Shown here piece after piece: positions 356 through 64,000 of a DNA stretch of 64,000 nucleotides. Positions within the stretch are counted from its first letter, which is position 1. Each line of letters begins with the position of its first letter. The stretch comes from Squalus acanthias (taxonomy: Eukaryota): the NCBI GenBank assembly GCA_030390025.1, contig CM059446.1:23498001-23562000 (forward strand). Reading direction: 5' to 3'. The notes beneath the pieces were generated by a model. That model was not told the DNA's origin. It saw nothing but the letters and a program-made list of their open reading frames with translations, and searched no databases. A program made the translations under genes and the position numbers.

Positions 356-747
356 AATTCCAGGCTGCATTTTTTGTGGGACTTTCCAACAATTCAGAAA
401 CAAACAGGATTTTGAAGTTCGACCAGATCTTCCTGAACTACGGAGATGGCTATTCACTGGAAAAAGATTACTTCAAAGCTCCGCTCAAAGGCATCTATGT
501 GTTTGTGGTTACCATGGAGTTTGGCCATGGGCCTGGACTTGGTTATCTTTTGGTTGATGGCAACCACACAATCACGCTTCAGAATAGCAGAAAAAAGCAG
601 CAGCACAGCAGCCTGGTTTGGGGCTATGCCATCCTCGAGCTCAGTAAAGGACAGCACGTGTGGGTAGAGGTGACACAAGGGTTTGTAGTTCAACGGACTC
701 CGCCGGAGACAACATTTGGTGGATTTCTGTTATTTAAAACATCTTAA
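356..747 (+). CDS. MMRN2: Terminal coding exon, C1q/gC1q domain of a multimerin/EMILIN family protein (MMRN2-like)
   Basis: Poly-T tract and TTTAG acceptor at 351-355. Translation AAFFVGL..LKFDQIFLNYGDGY..FKAPLKGIYVF..LELSKGQHVWV..TTFGGFLLFKTS* has the C1q signature. Symbol inferred from the known convergent MMRN2-BMPR1A arrangement in vertebrates. Confidence 0.8.
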
Positions 748-7130: not shown

Positions 7131-7261
7131 CTCATCACTGTTCCACCGGTTAGAAACTGTCGGACGAAGGCATTTAACACACGTCACTTCCCTCATATCC
7201 TCATAGGAGGGATCGTTTGGCACCATGTCATAATATGGCAACTGGTAGTCTTCTACAATAC
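7131..7261 (-). CDS. BMPR1A: BMPR1A kinase exon ([44 protein letters not shown])
   Basis: CAG acceptor, GTGAGT donor, 131 nt, in frame with neighbouring exons. Confidence 0.96.
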
Positions 7262-8531: not shown

Positions 8532-8707
8532 CTCCTGTAAGACAGCGACGTGACATCTCCCATATGACTAGGCCAAAGCTGTATATATCTGCCATCAAAT
8601 AAGCCTGGAATTGGTTCTTGTTGAGGCTCTCATCTAGTACCTCTGGTGCCATGTATCGCTTGGTGCCCACTCGTGTATTCAGTGGGATATCAACCTCATT
8701 TGTGTCA
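8532..8707 (-). CDS. BMPR1A: BMPR1A kinase exon ([58 protein letters not shown])
   Basis: CAG acceptor, GTATGT donor, 176 nt; activation segment GTKRYMAPE. Confidence 0.97.
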
Positions 8708-8862: not shown

Positions 8863-9309
8863 AGTGGTAATGCTTTATGTGTGAGTCTAGACAGATGGTG
8901 CCAACCAGCTCTTGGTTTATGATGTGTGTAGAAATAAGAGACCCTACAAGGTGGATAAATGTATCTTTCCTCTTCATTTGGGCAATCATCACACACGCAT
9001 GTGTCTTGCCAAAGTAATGAAAATTTAGGAGGAGGTGACCCGAGCTGAGGAGCTCCAACCCCTGCAGTCAAGATAGTTCTGCTAAAGACAAGACCTGTGC
9101 ATTAACGAAATTTAAACAGAAATGTCTGGTAAATGCAGGAGTAGTCCATACAGTTGTTTTTACAAATTATGCGAATTCAAACCTAAAAAATCCCCAGGAA
9201 ATGAACGCAGAACAAGTGATACGATCTAAAACTCAACTTTGTCGGTCTCTGAATAATGCAGCGTCATATAAAATGAGAGAAAAATTTCCTGATTCAAATA
9301 AAACTGGGA

Positions 9310-9610
9310 AAAGAACATTGGAACAAGAGGAAGCCATTCAGCCCCTTGAGCCATTCAATTAGATTATGGCTGCTCTGTATCTTAACTCTATCTACCCAAC
9401 TTGGTTCAGTAACTCTCAATACCCTTGCCGAACAAAAATCTATCAATCTCAGTTTTGAAATTTTAAACTGATCTCCAGTCTCAACAGCTTTTTGGGGAAG
9501 AGAGTTCCAGAGCTCCACTACCCTTTGTGTGAAGAAATCCTTTATGACACCACCCCTGAATGGCCTAGCTCTAATTTTAAGGTTATGCCACCTTGTTCTG
9601 GACTCTCGCA
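9310..9610 (-). mobile_element. CR1 LINE 3' fragment
   Basis: Translates TRWHNLKI..FFTQRVVELWNSLPQ, the CR1 ORF2 C-terminus, plus 3' tail. Confidence 0.85.
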
Positions 9611-10554
9611 ACTTAGGAAGAAACCCTAAGGAGCCTAAGAACCATTCTTAGCTTCATGCCCAAATCAAATATGGCTGATCTACAACGGAGGCCTGCGAGA
9701 CAAAACTAACACCAGCAAGAACATGGATTCGCTTGTGAGAAGAACTACGTATTGGTTCAAGAGAGATCTCGATGGGCACTATTTTCAGGTAGCCTGTATG
9801 AAGCAAGATTCCAAAGGGATCCCCATTTCGGCCCCAAGATCAGTAGTTTATAGATGGCTATTACAGCAACATACACATGAATGGAACTGATGAAACTTGG
9901 GGTTAATCCCAATTCAACCAGTTACACAAAAATAAGACGTACAGGGTTTGGTGACTTGGTTGCTGACCATCCAGCAAATATTATAAGCCTTATTACTAGA
10001 CATTTTAATGCCGTTAATCAAGAAGTACCAACTATTATTGGCGTATGACCATGCTCTAGCAAAATAGTGTTCAATGCTATGCCATTGCTCTAAAGAAAAA
10101 GAGTCCTTCTCTCAGGTTAAGGATTGGACCCCTCTCCTAAACTACGAAAACAAAATCTGCCTGCAGACCATGGTGATGTTGGCCTCACTCATAACTAGTA
10201 TAACCAAAAGCCATGGTTAGTGCAGCCAGTCACAATGACTTTTACCTGTTCTGTGTAAAATTTCTATAGCATCTTGGGATAAGGGGAAATGAAGGAACAA
10301 GTGCAGAAACTTTGGTGTCCAGAAAAAAAGATAGGTCATCCAGGTCCAAGTAATTCTTAGGAAGTTTTGCGCACAGAAACCAACTTTTGCTGCAAACATG
10401 AGTTAAAAGTGGTGGGAGGAAGTACAAATTCTAACAGTCATGGTGAGCATTTCTATGGGTATACAAACCAACCAGGCTTGGCGAAATTCCTACAGTGTGT
10501 GATGAATTACTGAATGAAGGAGAGCAGTCATTTTCACCTACACAGTTAGCTTGA

Positions 10555-10690: not shown

Positions 10691-11110
10691 AGGACAATCA
10701 TGTCTGTACCATAGATGTGCAGGTGACACTGCGTTGCTTTTGGATCAGTGGATGCAGTTTGAATTATTTTAAAATACTCTTGTATCAGGAAATTCAACAT
10801 TTTCAGAGTTTTAATTGGAGTAGTGTATGAGGATTGTGCAGAGTTTGGAAGGATGCTAATTCCCATTCAAAATGGGGCTACGCAAAGATAAAAGTGCTGC
10901 ATACAGACCCAATGTAGGACTCCGCTTATTCCCAACAAAAGTGGTGGTGGGAAGATTTTATAATTCCTTGTATGCTGCCAGATGTTTTGTATGGGCTGTG
11001 CATTTTGTCGCTATGTAAAATAATACCTGTATTACTTCAACCCAGTCCCTTAAGGTTACGATCAGAATAAACAAAGGTATTGCTTTTAGATTCAGGAGGT
11101 CATACATTAC

Positions 11111-11408
11111 CTGTTGAATTTCACAGTTAGGCCCAAGTCAGCAATGCTACAGGTTCCATTCTTTTTCACCAGGATGTTTTTGCTCTTTAGGTCGCGATGC
11201 GCAATAGCAGGCTTGCCTTGCGTGCCGTAGATTTCTGTGTGGAGGTGACAGAGACCGCTAGCAGCAGAATAGGCCAACTTTAGTAGGGCTTTGGTATCAA
11301 GCACAGTGCACTTCAGGTAGTCATACAGCGAGCCATTCTCATGGTAATCTGTAATCAGATACAACCATGTCGACGAGCCTTTGCCTTCAATGTCTGCAGC
11401 AATAAATC
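11111..11408 (-). CDS. BMPR1A: BMPR1A kinase exon (L45 loop, HRDLKSKN catalytic loop, DLG)
   Basis: CAG acceptor, GTAATG donor, 298 nt; [48 protein letters not shown]. Confidence 0.97.
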
Positions 11409-11968
11409 CTGGTAAAAATAAAATGGAAAGAGACAAAGTTTAGCACTTGGCTTCTCGCGTGATAGAACTAACTGTATGTCACCATATTCAAGTTGAAGAG
11501 TAAATACAAGCTGCTACATATTTATGGTAAAGAAGAAATCTTGGCGAAAAATGATTAAAAATGGGGAGAAGCAGGCAAGAGGAGTAAATACACTGCTTTT
11601 AAACAAGAACAGTAAACCATCTGGAATGGAATAAAATAACTTGCACTGATTTAAAAAAAAATATTTCATAACTGTACAGGAAAAGGAAAGCTCAACATGA
11701 CTCACTTTAACCATGCTACCTGTACAATAGTCAATAGCATGAATAAAGCTGCCGATAGTGATCAAACTCCACACAAGTACTCATTACCACAAAACACATT
11801 AATATTGCCTTGGATCCTTTCAGTGCACTTGGCAGCAGAATGAGATGGCCCCACCATTCTTCCACATCTGGTTAGAGGCATTGATGTTCATGCTGAAACT
11901 GACTGATCATAGGCCACCAAATTCCAGCACACGACCAACTCACACAGACAAATGGCTAGACAAGTGTT

Positions 11969-14770: not shown

Positions 14771-14986
<216 letters not shown>

Positions 14987-20593: not shown

Positions 20594-20732
20594 CAATAGA
20601 GGGAGCCCAGATCCACTACCGGAGCTCTGTGACTGGTCAATCAAGTCTTTCAGTGACTCGCCTGGCGGAATGAAGGCCACGTCCTGTTCAAGATCCCGGT
20701 TGTAGCGACGTCTGTCTGCCTGCCCCTTGTAC
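20594..20732 (-). CDS. BMPR1A: BMPR1A juxtamembrane/GS-domain exon ([46 protein letters not shown])
   Basis: TAG acceptor, GTAAGA donor, 139 nt; GS box [10 protein letters not shown]. Confidence 0.97.
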
Positions 20733-24755: not shown

Positions 24756-24855
24756 CTGAAGTAGAAATTGGAGTAAGCGTTGGGTGCAAATCCTTGTTAC
24801 AGAAGTCGGTCTTGCAGCACTCAATAGTTCTTCGTTTTCTCACTTTTGTTGAATC
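24756..24855 (-). CDS. BMPR1A: BMPR1A ectodomain cysteine-box exon ([33 protein letters not shown])
   Basis: TAG acceptor, GTAAGC donor, 100 nt; CCxxxxCN box. Confidence 0.95.
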
Positions 24856-37389: not shown

Positions 37390-37492
37390 CTTGCACTGGA
37401 AATCTGCTCCTTCTAACCTCATGCAGCCAGAGCCGAGGGTAATTTCTCCATTTTCATCCTCTTCAATAATGGCAAAACAGTTTCCATTTGTT
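37390..37492 (-). CDS. BMPR1A: BMPR1A ectodomain exon ([34 protein letters not shown])
   Basis: CAG acceptor, GTAAGA donor, 103 nt; retains the DFQC ligand-binding motif. Confidence 0.96.
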
Positions 37493-43240: not shown

Positions 43241-43751
43241 GCTCTACAACATTCTCTGCTAAACCTAAACAATTAAAAGGTGTAGCAGCGTTAGCATCCA
43301 GGTGACCCCCATGACACATGCAGTAGCTGGCCTGCTATATATGGAACACTGTCTCAACATTATCTGCAGACAACTACCAAAACAAAAGCACATTAAGCAA
43401 AAGTTAGGGATCTAAAACTAGATTTGCTGCTGCTTTAAGTTAAAATAATAAACGTCATTTGACATTACTTAAATGAAATTCATTGCCACAAGAGAAGACA
43501 CGACCACAGCATACTGAAAAACCTGTGCTATAAAAAGGGCTAAAACTGGCAAGTGACAATAGAAACATTTAAAACCATTTACTGAAGTTGTGAGGTAGCA
43601 GGAGTGCATTTTCAGTTCAGCAAAAGCTGTGACAACAGAACCACAGACCAGAGCTTCACCAATCATTAAAATGTGTGGCTACCAGGATCGTACCTATGAG
43701 CTTAAAGCGTAATTGCTCCACTTTTCTTCCCACTTGGTTAACACTGCATAG

Positions 43752-45454
43752 CTTTTCACTACTGTTCACTATGGAGAAGGACGATGTAGGCATAGAAATC
43801 AGGCAGGGGGATTGTGATATACTTGAACAAATTAGTATTGAGAGGGAGGAGGTACTAGCGGTTTTAGCAGGCTTAAAAGTGGATAAATCCCCAGGCCCAG
43901 ACGAGATGTATCCCAGGCTGCTGTGTGAGGCAAGGGAGGAGATTGCAGGGGCTCTGACACAAATTTTCAGATCCTCTCTGGCCACAGGGGAGGTGCCAGA
44001 GGACTGGAGGACAGCTAACGTAGTACCATTATTCAAGAAGGGTAGTAGGGATAAACCAGGGAATTACAGGCCAGTGAGCCTAACATCAGTGGTAGGGAAA
44101 TTATTGGAAAAAATTCTGAGGGACAGAATTAGTCTCCACTTGGAGAGGCAAGGATTAATCAAGGATAGTCAGCATGGCTTTGTCAGGGGGAGATCATGTC
44201 TAACCAATTTGATTGAATTTTTCGAGGGGCTGACTAGGTGCGTGGATGAGGGTAGTGCAGTTGATGTAGTATACATGGACTTCAGTAAGGCTTTTGACAA
44301 AGTCCCGCATGGGAGACTGGTCAAGAAGGTAAGAGCCCATGGGATTCAGGGCAATTTGGCACATTGGATCCAAAATTGGCTTAGTGGCAGGAGGCAGAGG
44401 GTGATGGTCGAAGGTTTTTGTGACTGGAAGCCTGCGTCCAGTGGTGTACCGCAGGGATCGGTACTGGGTCCTTTGCTGTTCGTAGTGTACATTAATGATT
44501 TAGATATGAATGTAGGAGGTATGATCAGTAAGTTTGCAGATGACACGAAAATTGGTGGAGTGGTAAATAGCGAGGAGGGAAGCCTCAGGCTACAGGACGA
44601 TATAGACGGGTTGGTCAGATGGGCAGAACACTGGCAAATGGAATTTAACCCTGAAATGTGTGAGGTGATGCATTTTGGGAGGACAAACAAGTCAAGGGAA
44701 TACACAATGAATGGTAGGACCCTAGGAAGGACAGAGGACCAGAGGGACCTTGGTGTGGATGTACATAGATCCCTGAAGGCAGCAGGACAGGTAGATAAGG
44801 TGGTTAAAAAGGCATATGGGATACCTGCCTTCATTAGCCGAGGCATAGAATATAAGAGCAGGGAGGTTATGATGGAGCTGTACAAAATGCTAGTTAGGCC
44901 ACAGCTGGAATACTGTGTGCAGTTCTGGTTGTCACACTATAGGAAGGATGTGATTGCATTAGAGAGGGTGCAGAGGAGATTCACCAGGATGTTACCTGGG
45001 CTGGAGCGCTTCAGCTATGAAGAGAGACTGGACAGGCTGGGGTTGTTTTCCTTCGAGCAGAGAAGGCTGAGGGGGGACCTGATTGAGGTGTCCAAAATTA
45101 TGAGGGGCATAGATAGGGTAGATAGAAAGGAACTTTTCCCCTTAGTAGAGGGGTCAATAACCAGGGGGCATAGTTTCAAGGTAAGGGACAGGAGGTTTAG
45201 AGGGGATTTGAGGAAAAACTTTTCACCCAGAGGGTGGTTGGACTCTGGAACTCACTGCCTGAAAGGGTGGTAGAGGCAGGAACCCTCACAACATTCAAGA
45301 AGCATTTAGATGAGCACTTGAAACGCCATAGCTTACAAGGCTACGGACCAAGTGTTGGAAAATGGGATTAGAATAGATAGGGCTTGATGGCCGGCGCGGA
45401 CACGATGGGCCGAAGGGCCTCTTTCTGTGCTGTATGACTCTATGACTACTCTAT
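43752..45454 (+). mobile_element. 5'-truncated CR1 LINE with an open RT domain and complete 3' tail
   Basis: ORF 43675-45273: KSPGPD, PGNYRPVSLTS, QHGF, DFSKAFDKVPH, GVPQGSVLGP, FADD; frameshift near 45215; tail CTGTATGACTCTATGACT. Confidence 0.95.
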
Positions 45455-45722: not shown

Positions 45723-45861
45723 TTGCATGTATTGTTCCCTTCCTCAGTCGCACAGTGACCAGAACAGTAACAATGAAGCCTTGGCTCTGCATCTTCAGGT
45801 GCTACTGTGGCACCATTTGCCTTCATGCCTGTTCCCATAAGCATGCTGTCAGGATTCTGAC
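45723..45861 (-). CDS. BMPR1A: BMPR1A second coding exon ([46 protein letters not shown])
   Basis: AAG acceptor after a pyrimidine tract, GTGAGT donor, 139 nt; CYCSGHC..NNTC typical of ALK3; needs one more upstream exon (phase 1) for ATG and signal peptide. Confidence 0.93.
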
Positions 45862-57389: not shown

Positions 57390-58270
57390 TTAAGAACACA
57401 AGATCATAAGAAATAGGAACAGGAGTAGGCCATATGGCCGCTTGAGCCTGCTCCACCATTCAATAAGATCATGGCTGATCTTTGACCTCAACTGCACTTT
57501 CCCGCCCAATCTCCATATCCCTTGATTCCCTTAGAGTCCAAAAATCTATCTATCTCAGCCTTAAATATACTCAACGACTCAGCATCCACAGCCCTTTGGG
57601 GTAGAGAATTCCAAAGATTCACAACCCTCTGATTAAAGAAATTCCTCCTCATCTCAGTCCTAAATGGCCGACCCCTTATCCTGAGACTATGCCCCTTAGT
57701 TCTCGACTCTCCAGCCAGGGGAAACAGCCTCACAACATCTACCCTGTCAATCCCCCTCAGAATCTTATATGGTTCAATGAGATCACCTCTCATTCTTCTA
57801 AACTCCAGGGAGTATAGGCCCATTCTACTTAATCTCTCTTCAAAGGAAAACTCTCTCATCCCAGGAATCAATCTAGTATATCCTTCCTTAGGTACGGAGA
57901 CCAAAACTGTACACAGTGCTCCAGGTGTGGTCTCACCAAGGCCCTGTACAATTGCAGCAAGACTTCCTTGCTCTTGTACTCCAACCCCCTTGCAATAAAG
58001 GCCAACATGCCATTTGCCTTCCTAATTGCTTGCTGTACCTGCATGTTAATTTTGTGTTTTGTGTACAAGGACACCCAAATCCCTCTGAACACCAACATTT
58101 AATAGTTACTCACGATTTTAAAATTATTCTGTTTTTCTATTCTTCAAAGTGAATAACCTCACATTTCCCCATATTATACTTCATCTGCCACCTTCTTGCC
58201 CACTCCCTCTACCTACCTATATCCCTTTGCAGATTGTGTGTCCTCCTCACAGCTTACTTTCCCACCTAGC
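57390..58270 (-). mobile_element. CR1 LINE 3' fragment
   Basis: QVQQAIRKANGMLAFIARGLEYKSKEVLLQLYRALVRPHLEHCVQFWSPY; FFNQRVVNLWNSLPQ; tail. Confidence 0.9.
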
Positions 58271-59349: not shown

Positions 59350-59795
59350 CATAGAAACAGGAGGAGGCCATTCAGCCCTTCGAGCCTGTTCCGTCATTCA
59401 ATTAGATCAGGGCTGAGTTGTATCTCAACTCCATTTACCCACCTTGGTTCCATATTCCTTAATACCCTTGCCTAATAAAAATGTTTAATTGACTCCTAGC
59501 CCACAGCTTTTTTGGGGGGGATGGGGGAGTTCCAGATTTCCACTCCCCTTTTTGTGACGAAGTGCTTCCTGACATCACCTCTGAACGGCCTGGCTCTAAT
59601 TTTAAGGTTATGCCCCCTTGTTCTGGACTCCCCCACCAGAGGAAATAGTTTCTCTCTATCTACCCTATCAAATCCTTTAATCATCTTAAACACCTCAACT
59701 AGATCATCCTTTAGTCTTCTATACGCAAGGGAATACAAGCCTAGTCTATGAGGCCTGTCCTCATAATTTAACCCTTTTAGCCCCAGTATCATTCT
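59350..59795 (-). mobile_element. CR1 LINE 3' fragment
   Basis: LGLYSLAYRRLKDDLVEVFKMIKGFDRVDREKLFPL..TRGHNLKI. Confidence 0.85.
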
Positions 59796-59869
59796 CCTCT
59801 CCCCTTGGTGCTGACTCCTTGCTGGAGTACAGTTTTGTGGGTGCTGTTCACCCTCGGGTATCTTGCCCA

Positions 59870-60150
59870 AATATCCATTACTTACACAAAGATTGGATGG
59901 TATTTTACCATCAGGTATCACAATCAAGCATCATCCTGTCCTCACATGATCTACACACAGGCACGGGGGATACTGGATAGTGATCAGAGCACGAATTCTG
60001 CCTAATTTTCCTCCCTAACCAAAGGGCGCTGAAGCCAATTGTGGTGCCCTTACTACTACGCCAGCTGATTTTCACATAGGCCAGGAATCAAACCTGGATT
60101 GTACAGCTCAGTTGCTCACTAGCTAACTTTGTTCAGTCAGCAGGTGATCC
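59870..60150 (-). mobile_element. Old tRNA-derived SINE (family of 7305-7685)
   Basis: ACTGGATAGTGATCAG..GGGCGCTGAAGCCAATTGTGGTGCCC is the reverse complement of the shared core. Confidence 0.55.
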
Positions 60151-62294: not shown

Positions 62295-62785
62295 ACACGA
62301 CAACGCAAAATCGTCGAGCAGAAACGGATAGCCAAGTTCCGCACCCATGAGGACGGCCTCAACTGGGATCTTGGGTTCATGTCACGCTACATGTAACCCC
62401 ACCTGACGTAGTGTCATCCAGACTCGAGTCAGGCTTGTTCTCTCTACACAGATGCGGCTGGACCTGCTGTGATTTCCAGCAAAAAAAGTTTTTTGTTTTC
62501 CATACAGACCCCAGCATCTGCCACATTGTCTTTGATGTAATGTTTTCCTGACTGACCTGTTTGGACACCATCCACACCTTTGATTGCCGTGATTATCTCT
62601 CTGCCGAGGTGTGATAAAGGGCAGTTAGAAAGATTAACTGTAATCATCTGGCAGTGTTCTCTATGACTATATATGCTGTGCCTATATGCATCTCTTCACT
62701 TCACCTGACGAAGGAGCAGCGCTCCGAAAGCTTGTGATTTCAAATAAAGCTGTTGGACTATAACCTGGTGTGGTGCGACTTCTCA
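62295..62785 (+). mobile_element. Penelope-like element 3' fragment, copy 2
   Basis: Same RKIVEQKRIAKFRTHEDGLNWDLGFMSRY coding end and same 3' terminus as 17223-17731. Confidence 0.8.
62701..62737 (+). ncRNA. Minimal type I hammerhead ribozyme motif
   Basis: TCAC-CTGACGA-A-GGAGC(AGC)GCTCC-GAAA-GCT-T-GTGA; perfect TCAC/GTGA stem I. Confidence 0.65.
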
Positions 62786-63344
62786 CATAAATACTGTGGC
62801 AACAAGAGCAGGTCAGAGGCTGGGTATTCTGCGGCGGGTGTCTCACCTTTTGACTCCCCAAAGCCTTTCCACCATCTACAAGGCACAAGTCAGGAGTGTG
62901 ATGGAATACTCTCCACTTGCCTGGATGAGTGCAGCTCCAACAACACTCAAGAAGCTCAACACCATCCAGCACAAAGCAGCCTGCTTGATTGGCACCCCAT
63001 CCACCACCTTAAACATTCACTCCCTCCACCACCGGCGTATCGTGGCTGCAGTGTGTACCATCTACAAGATGCACGGCAGCAACTCGCCAAGGCTTCTTCG
63101 GCAGCACCTCCCAAACCCACGACCTCTTCCACCTAGAAGGACAAGGGCAGCAGGCGCATGGGAACACCACCACCTCCAAGTTCCCCTCCAAGTCACACAC
63201 CATCCTAACTTGGAAGTATATCGCCGCTCCTTCATCATCGCTGGGTCAAAATCCTGGAACTCCCTCCCTAACAGTACTGTGGGAGTACCTTCACCACACG
63301 GACTGCAGCAGTTCAAGAAGGCGGCTCACCACCACCTTCTCAAG
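62786..63344 (+). mobile_element. LINE (CR1/L2 group, distinct family) ORF2 C-terminal fragment
   Basis: RAGQRLGILRR..TIYKAQVRSVMEYSPLAW..SLHHRR..SWNSLP..LQQFK; post-RT region. Confidence 0.8.
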
Positions 63345-64000
63345 AGCAGGGTGGATAAAGGGGAACCAGTGGATGTGGTGTATTTGGATTTCCAGAAGGC
63401 ATTCGATAAGGTGCCACATAAAAGGTTACTACACAAGATAAGAGCTCACGGGGTTGGGGGTAATATATTAGCATGGATAAAGGATTGGCTTACTAACAGA
63501 AAACAGAGAGTCAGGATAAATGGGTCATTTTCAGGTTGGCAAACTGTAACTAGTGGGGTGCCGCAGGGATCAGTACTGGGGCCTCAACTATTTACAATCT
63601 ATATTAATGACTTGGCTAAAGGGACTGAGTGTAATGTAGCCAAATTTGCTGATGATACAAAGATAGGTGGGAAAGCAAATTGTGTGGAGGACACAAAGAA
63701 TCTCCAAAGGGATATAGATAGGCTAAGTGAGTAGGCAAAAATCTGGCAGATGGAGTTTAATGTGGGAAAATGCGAGGTTATCCACTTTGGTACGAAAAAT
63801 AAAAAAGCAAATTATTATTTAAATGGGGAGAGATTACAAAATGCTGAGGTACAGAGGGATATGGGGGTCCTTGTACATGAATCACAAAGTTAGCATGCAG
63901 GTACAGCAAGTAATTAGGAAGGCAAATGGAGTGTTGGCCTTTATTGCAAAGGGAATGGAGTATAAAAGTAAGGAAGTCCTGTTACAACTGTACAGGGCGT
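63345..64000 (+). mobile_element. CR1 LINE RT fragment, runs off the window
   Basis: VDVVYLDFQKAFDKVPH, GVPQGSVLGP, FADDTK; premature TAG at 63732-63734. Confidence 0.92.

Follow-up and report, generated by a model that had tools for sequence, protein, structure and literature searches.

The L45 loop and a neighbouring N-lobe edge of BMPR1A are altered across cartilaginous fishes, with predicted effects on Smad docking and feedback

Introduction

The L45 loop of type I receptors is taught as identical in ALK3 (BMPR1A) and ALK6 (BMPR1B) and as the selector of R-Smads; in the accessible text of a review, the ALK3 and ALK6 loops are stated to show no amino acid difference (PMC6953019). The BMPR1A locus of the shark Squalus acanthias raises the question of what follows when a whole vertebrate class has fixed a receptor-specific variant of this loop. 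The window (the whole stretch of DNA analysed, 64,000 nucleotides) had been read in an initial annotation, made from its letters alone, as encoding a BMPR1A with four substitutions clustered in L45 and possibly with altered Smad coupling. Such substitutions are natural and viable and can be used for mapping the docking of R-Smads and inhibitory Smads on type I receptors. They also give a molecular point of contrast in BMP signalling, open to direct testing, between cartilaginous and bony vertebrates, and the BMPR1A of a shark or skate may behave unlike the mammalian receptor.

An intact BMPR1A gene in the window

Ten GT-AG coding exons with an open frame run from 45861 to 5534 on the minus strand (Table 1). 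The window yielded no signal-peptide (first coding) exon, even in the 18 kb above the first exon located, and the intron that follows it is probably longer than 18 kb. The GS box and ten ectodomain cysteines, described as intact in the initial annotation, were confirmed by the exon model and by a motif check, in which all nine motifs sought, including the G-loop, GS box and C-terminal motif, were present; the activation-loop arginine and all catalytic motifs are intact as well. The protein is identical to Heptranchias perlo BMPR1A at 498 of 500 aligned residues and shares 94-99% identity with other chondrichthyan BMPR1A proteins. Pfam PF01064, PF08515 and PF00069 (ectodomain, GS motif and Ser/Thr kinase) were found on P0128, a protein 99.6% identical to the window gene, and the full domain set of a BMPR1A orthologue (activin-receptor ectodomain, transmembrane helix, GS motif, Ser/Thr kinase) is present.

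In a midpoint-rooted tree of 50 rows, the window gene falls in the BMPR1A clade (support 100/100), separate from BMPR1B, of which chondrichthyans carry a distinct copy. The chondrichthyan BMPR1A clade (14 rows, 100/100) has short crown branches on a stem of length 0.27. Removal of both altered loops from the alignment leaves the shark protein firmly within the ALK3 clade. Among the best 120 matches of the exon search, the sole named chondrichthyan protein with an ordinary loop is a BMPR1B. A divergent extra paralogue or a pseudogene was rejected on the grounds of the intact frame and the tree; the window gene is an intact shark BMPR1A (ALK3).

Table 1. Positions of BMPR1A features and of a neighbouring exon in the window
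Feature	Position	Strand	Basis or remark
L45 (beta4-beta5) region, A294-W304	11365..11397	-	translated sequence and alignment
K297E	11388-11386	-	L45 region
T299K	11382-11380	-	L45 region
W302S	11373-11371	-	L45 region
Q304W	11367-11365	-	L45 region
beta3-alphaC edge, P264-S265-A266	14864..14872	-	F-T-T in mouse BMPR1A, bony-vertebrate BMPR1B and lamprey
Q239L in beta1, fixed in chondrichthyans	14945..14947	-	alignment
N287S in alphaC-beta4 loop, fixed in chondrichthyans	14801..14803	-	alignment
A384T directly after DLG motif, fixed in chondrichthyans	11125..11127	-	alignment
BMPR1A coding exon, ectodomain start	45723..45861	-	exon model
BMPR1A coding exon, ectodomain	37390..37492	-	exon model
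BMPR1A coding exon, ectodomain cysteine box	24756..24855	-	exon model
BMPR1A coding exon, transmembrane helix	23039..23138	-	exon model
BMPR1A coding exon, juxtamembrane region and GS box	20594..20732	-	exon model
BMPR1A coding exon, alphaGS2 to alphaC-beta4 loop (G-loop, VAVK)	14794..14986	-	exon model
BMPR1A coding exon, beta4 to DLG (L45 loop and catalytic loop)	11111..11408	-	GT-AG exon
BMPR1A coding exon, activation loop and APE	8532..8707	-	exon model
BMPR1A coding exon, C-lobe	7131..7261	-	exon model
BMPR1A last coding exon and stop codon	5534..5659	-	exon model
Terminal C1q-domain exon of a neighbour gene, tail-to-tail with BMPR1A	360..747	+	domain match

The L45 loop and companion changes in the N-lobe

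Residues are numbered here as in mouse BMPR1A (532 residues, catalytic lysine 261). From 11397 to 11359 the minus strand reads GCA GAC ATT GAA GGC AAA GGC TCG TCG ACA TGG TTG TAT, and the resulting L45 loop is IEGKGSSTW, as compared with the canonical IKGTGSWTQ of ALK3/6. The closest solved structure by sequence is that of human BMPR1B, with ADIKGTGSWTQLY at the loop, from which the shark differs by K>E, T>K, W>S and Q>W; ALK2 reads SDMTSRHSSTQLW. The four substitutions reported initially are real; their minus-strand codons lie in a GT-AG exon. A two-residue register shift by paired indels, which would place K and W each two positions later, is a less parsimonious account than five point changes. 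The cluster of four in L45 is confirmed; five more fixed N-lobe changes in the preceding exon (Q239L, F264P, T265S, T266A and N287S) had been overlooked. Three of them convert the canonical FFTT of the beta3-alphaC edge into FPSA. These five and the four in L45 make up the nine N-lobe changes considered below.

The shark protein shares with BMPR1A/ALK3 and BMPR1B/ALK6 the domain order, the ten ectodomain cysteines, the GS box and the catalytic motifs, and differs from vertebrate ALK3/6 in both loops and at Q239L, N287S and A384T. Departure from the canonical L45, identical in ALK3 and ALK6, lowers its status as a typical loop, not its orthology. Within chondrichthyans, the BMPR1A and BMPR1B loops differ at four or five positions.

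The likeness to ALK1 and ALK2, which are Smad1/5/8 receptors, is partial. S265, a basic residue at 299 and S301-S302-T303 are ALK1/2-like, and the ALK2-like SST pointed out in the initial annotation is confirmed by the last of these; S298 is added in stingrays, devil rays and sawfish. ALK2 differs from shark BMPR1A in M296, T297, H/N300, Q304, W306, S264, R266 and K269, and neither the kinase phylogeny nor the MTSR[H/N]SSTQ loop places the shark protein in the ALK1/2 group. The description "ALK2-like" applies to only part of the patch, E297 and W304 not being ALK2 residues. Gene conversion from ACVR1 was rejected, since ACVR1 lacks E297, W304 and P264 and both exons otherwise resemble ALK3.

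Distribution and origin

The exon search returned two clusters with the shark-type loop, of 51 and 4 members. Nineteen members were listed, and two lacking the kinase domain were dropped. All 17 remaining listed chondrichthyan BMPR1A kinase sequences have IE[G/S]KGSSTW (12 with G298, 5 with S298) and FPSAEEA, and all nine N-lobe changes occur in 17/17 aligned rows. Fourteen named species are represented among them: several orders of sharks, together with skates, rays, a sawfish and Callorhinchus. The initial suggestion of a change at the level of a lineage therefore extends to every cartilaginous fish sampled. Reads showing a canonical loop would have pointed to an assembly error; this was rejected, since the identical loop recurs in all 14 named species and is also encoded, within two full-length proteins, on Logan contigs of 2,941 and 4,428 bases. 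Because the gene spans more than 40 kb, these contigs appear to be spliced transcripts. Of four runs, one DNA run gave a contig that matches 10980-11557 without differences, and this run may be the source of the assembly itself. None of the runs listed as carrying the sequence is recorded as RNA, and the run search therefore does not bear on expression.

Ordinary L45 loops are found in lamprey and hagfish ALK3/6 and in coelacanth, lungfish and mammals. This distribution suggests that the loop change most likely arose once, before holocephalans and elasmobranchs diverged, a split dated to about 400 million years ago. The stingrays, devil rays and sawfish (P0123, P0124, P0125, P0132, P0134) add G298S, the ALK1/2 residue, which would represent a further step following the stem changes. 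Among chondrichthyan BMPR1A proteins, the mean N-lobe p-distance is 0.008 and the N-/C-lobe ratio is like that of sarcopterygians, which argues for ordinary purifying selection in a slow lineage. The low diversity matches the general slowdown of chondrichthyans. We propose a single origin of the changes on the chondrichthyan stem, followed by ordinary purifying selection.

Rarity and recurrence in other type I receptors

Among 149 representatives of distant type I receptors, 143 cover the kinase; in these 143, E297 and W304 are absent and P264 occurs in 3. Among 313 non-chondrichthyan ALK3/6 proteins with both motifs readable (redundant rows, not independent ones), P264, K299 and W304 occur in none and E297 in 1. 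The loop differs from the canonical form in 78 of the 313, mostly in ray-finned fishes, whose skeletons are bony; 22 have S302 and 22 carry at least three changes. The possibility, raised initially, that similar variation is common among ALK3 orthologues held in part: the loop does vary, but K299, W304 and P264 do not occur in this set. Zebrafish Bmpr1aa carries K297N, S301A and W302S, as do other ostariophysans and shad. F264S occurs with W302L in Pholidichthys, and F264 is altered without a W302 change in sticklebacks and in one cyprinid BMPR1B. The aligned sequences suggest that the patch is a recurrent site of change in BMPR1A and that the chondrichthyan form is the most extreme seen; the changes in ray-finned Bmpr1aa/1ab and in salamander BMPR1A are independent and milder.

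Several of these cases are observations in their own right. In ray-finned fish BMPR1A (P0236, P0010 and relatives), T266R together with W302F is widespread, and W302S also occurs. F264S, W302M and Q304H are present in 7/7 salamander BMPR1A proteins (P0115, P0520-P0525; Pleurodeles, Ambystoma, Lissotriton and others), and in the five printed the GS box reads SGSGLG, not SGSGSG, with loss of a phospho-acceptor serine. A single sequence of Syngnathus acus, BMPR1A-like P0223, appears to have independently acquired K297E and Q304R, a possible cross-strand charge pair.

Predicted arrangement of the altered residues

The Heptranchias protein was modelled with AlphaFold2 at a mean pLDDT of 75, with values of about 64-68 over residues 271-290; the best structural match of the model is BMPR1B 3MDY. 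In this model, residues 264-265 form the end of beta3, 293-298 beta4, 299-302 a turn and 303-310 beta5. Cross-strand pairing was taken from these strand ranges and the usual kinase register and topology, not from coordinates. On this basis F264 (beta3), Q304 (beta5) and K297 (beta4) would line up across the strands as a single row, on the outward-facing side of the N-lobe sheet. The row leads to the proposal that Q304W replaces the aromatic bulk lost through F264P and W302S. The co-changes in salamanders, Pholidichthys and pipefish appear to fit this reading, and the two teleost BMPR1B lineages with 264 changed alone would count against it. D295, next to the row, is kept in shark BMPR1A. Available passages on ALK2 describe the equivalent residue as bonding GS-helix arginines (PMC3481300), and according to those on ALK1, signalling depends on the equivalent L45 aspartate, which is predicted to contact SMAD1 (PMC10419700).

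Clustering of changes and paralogue controls

Sites conserved in sarcopterygian BMPR1A, BMPR1B and lamprey were used for counting. Chondrichthyan BMPR1A is changed at 9/72 such sites in the N-lobe, 5/160 in the C-lobe, 0/25 in the GS region and 2/37 in the ectodomain, with a post hoc Fisher p=0.013 for N-lobe against C-lobe. With a differently chosen site set, the N-lobe of BMPR1A is changed at 9/73 sites and that of chondrichthyan BMPR1B at 1/73 (p=0.017, post hoc); the C-lobes (6/162 and 3/162, respectively) show no significant difference. A single 9-residue stretch contains four of the 14 changes in the kinase domain (permutation P=0.043, post hoc), and the two best stretches together contain 7 of 14 (P=0.011, post hoc). 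Clustering in L45 modestly exceeds chance.

The other BMP-type receptors of these animals serve as controls. The L45 loop is ordinary in 18/18 chondrichthyan BMPR1B proteins and in 7/7 ACVR1 proteins, and therefore the R-Smads of sharks probably still read ordinary loops. In ACVR1, 3/74 N-lobe sites are changed, none in the L45 or beta3-alphaC loops. The edge altered in BMPR1A carries one fixed change in chondrichthyan BMPR1B, T266M, present in 18/18 proteins (P0404, P0405, P0499-P0513, P0114).

These counts bear on a strong rival explanation, according to which the patch is tolerant, the stem changes were mutually compensated and became entrenched, and signalling and regulation are essentially unchanged. 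We regard it as plausible, if somewhat doubtful. Its strength comes from the variation among fishes described above and from zebrafish dorsoventral patterning, for which the accessible text of one study reports that Bmpr1 kinase activity is dispensable (PMC8054026). The loop tip is described as disordered in ALK2 crystals in the available parts of two reports (PMC3481300, PMC7911104). Moreover, when the whole protein is considered the chondrichthyan stem is a long one, and the lungfish BMPR1A stem (0.28) is as long in the same tree. However, lungfish and coelacanth BMPR1A are changed at 5/232 and 1/232 conserved kinase sites, with none in these two loops, and the chondrichthyan changes are enriched in the N-lobe and only in the BMPR1A paralogue. 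Among them, too, a proline and a tryptophan were introduced and one charge was reversed, and P264, K299 and W304 are the residues absent from the 313 proteins, which speaks against mere tolerance of the patch.

Smad coupling

The explanation that we favour, to which we would give close to an even chance, is that shark BMPR1A is a Smad1/5/8 receptor whose docking patch has been remodelled and made more ALK2-like, with a predicted weakening of Smad6 feedback. The receptor would likely still phosphorylate Smad1/5/8, via the remodelled patch. The parts of this explanation differ in strength. The R-Smad class has very probably been kept, because sharks retain D295, I296, G300, S301 and T303 and have acquired no residue of the ALK4/5/7 type. 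The prediction that function has changed at the level of feedback or of docking strength is about evenly balanced; it is made because sharks differ at two of the four residues reported to govern Smad6 sensitivity (F264 and T265), and at one of these two they have the residue of ALK2. The ALK3/6 class is characterised by phosphorylation of Smad1/5/8 and by preferential inhibition through Smad6. The determinants of this sensitivity, reportedly identified by Goto in 2007, are said to be R238, F264, T265 and A269. Numbers 238, 264, 265 and 269 do correspond to R, F, T and A in mouse BMPR1A and differ in ALK2; sharks have kept R238 and A269.

The initial annotation left room for a change of R-Smad class, and one reading along this line is that the receptor has gained Smad2/3 phosphorylation, by a switch or by dual specificity, so that BMP input is partly turned into TGF-beta-type output. 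The L45 loop is presented as an accepted specificity determinant in the available sections of two sources (PMC6953019, PMC7175140), and K297E adds an acidic residue, the ALK5-type loop being acidic at the next position. The residues themselves argue the other way. ALK3/6 are separated from ALK4/5/7 by I/N296, G/D298, T/N299 and S/T301, and the shark has I, G or S, K and S. Three of the four BMP-class residues are thus retained (I296, G298 and S301), or two of four in the 5/17 sequences with S298. ALK5/4/7 (TGFBR1/ACVR1B/ACVR1C) have the kinase fold and S265 in common with shark BMPR1A, but their L45 residues N296, D298, N299 and T301 are matched at 0/4 positions, and ALK5-type receptors keep K297 and W302, both lost in the shark. 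With no Smad2/3-type residue gained, and with K299, S302, S265 and the S298 of rays resembling ALK2, a class switch is very unlikely.

A different proposal is that coupling to Smads has been weakened and that BMPR1A acts mainly as a ligand-binding partner in mixed complexes, R-Smads being phosphorylated by ACVR1 or BMPR1B. Such a division of labour exists in zebrafish gastrulae according to the accessible text of PMC8054026, and available passages of PMC10419700 report that ALK1 T265P, at the position equivalent to 297, lowers signalling. The unchanged BMPR1B and ACVR1 loops of sharks would agree with this proposal. Nevertheless, the catalytic motifs, activation-loop arginine and GS box are intact, no conserved GS site is changed, and the N-lobe is strongly conserved among chondrichthyans, as the p-distance given above indicates; we consider weakened coupling rather unlikely. 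Should the altered loop make no difference to signalling, the case shrinks to a note on tolerated variation.

Skeleton and literature

The initial annotation drew attention to the cartilaginous skeleton of this clade. In its fullest form, the argument would be that the Smad-docking face was rebuilt on the stem into a form absent from all other type I receptors examined, escaping Smad6 or shifting R-Smad preference, and that this change, shared by the whole clade and affecting the principal BMP receptor of the skeleton, contributed to a tessellated, largely boneless skeleton. The link to the skeleton is speculation, and this reading as a whole is quite unlikely; the recurrence of milder changes at this patch, in ray-finned fishes and in salamanders, weakens it.

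The chondrichthyan loop variant is apparently undescribed in the literature searched, in which no paper on the chondrichthyan BMPR1A loop was found; most subscription papers and supplements lay outside the scope of this search and may show the loop. In the accessible part of a receptor survey that includes the elephant shark, L45 is not mentioned (PMC5979292).

Other features of the window

A gene ending in a C1q-domain exon lies tail-to-tail with BMPR1A. This position is held in human by MMRN2, and the neighbour may be MMRN2-like. The exon shows weak similarity to a portion of a run-together gene model from hamster, one that takes in BMPR1A, and an Atlas search with it returned generic C1q clusters only. 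In a BMPR1A intron, a 546-residue ORF with a reverse transcriptase domain (Pfam RVT_1) occupies 43633-45273 on the plus strand and represents a LINE-type copy; fragments resembling a LINE-type ORF were also seen near 9300-9650, 57500-58000, 59500-59900 and 62750-63730.
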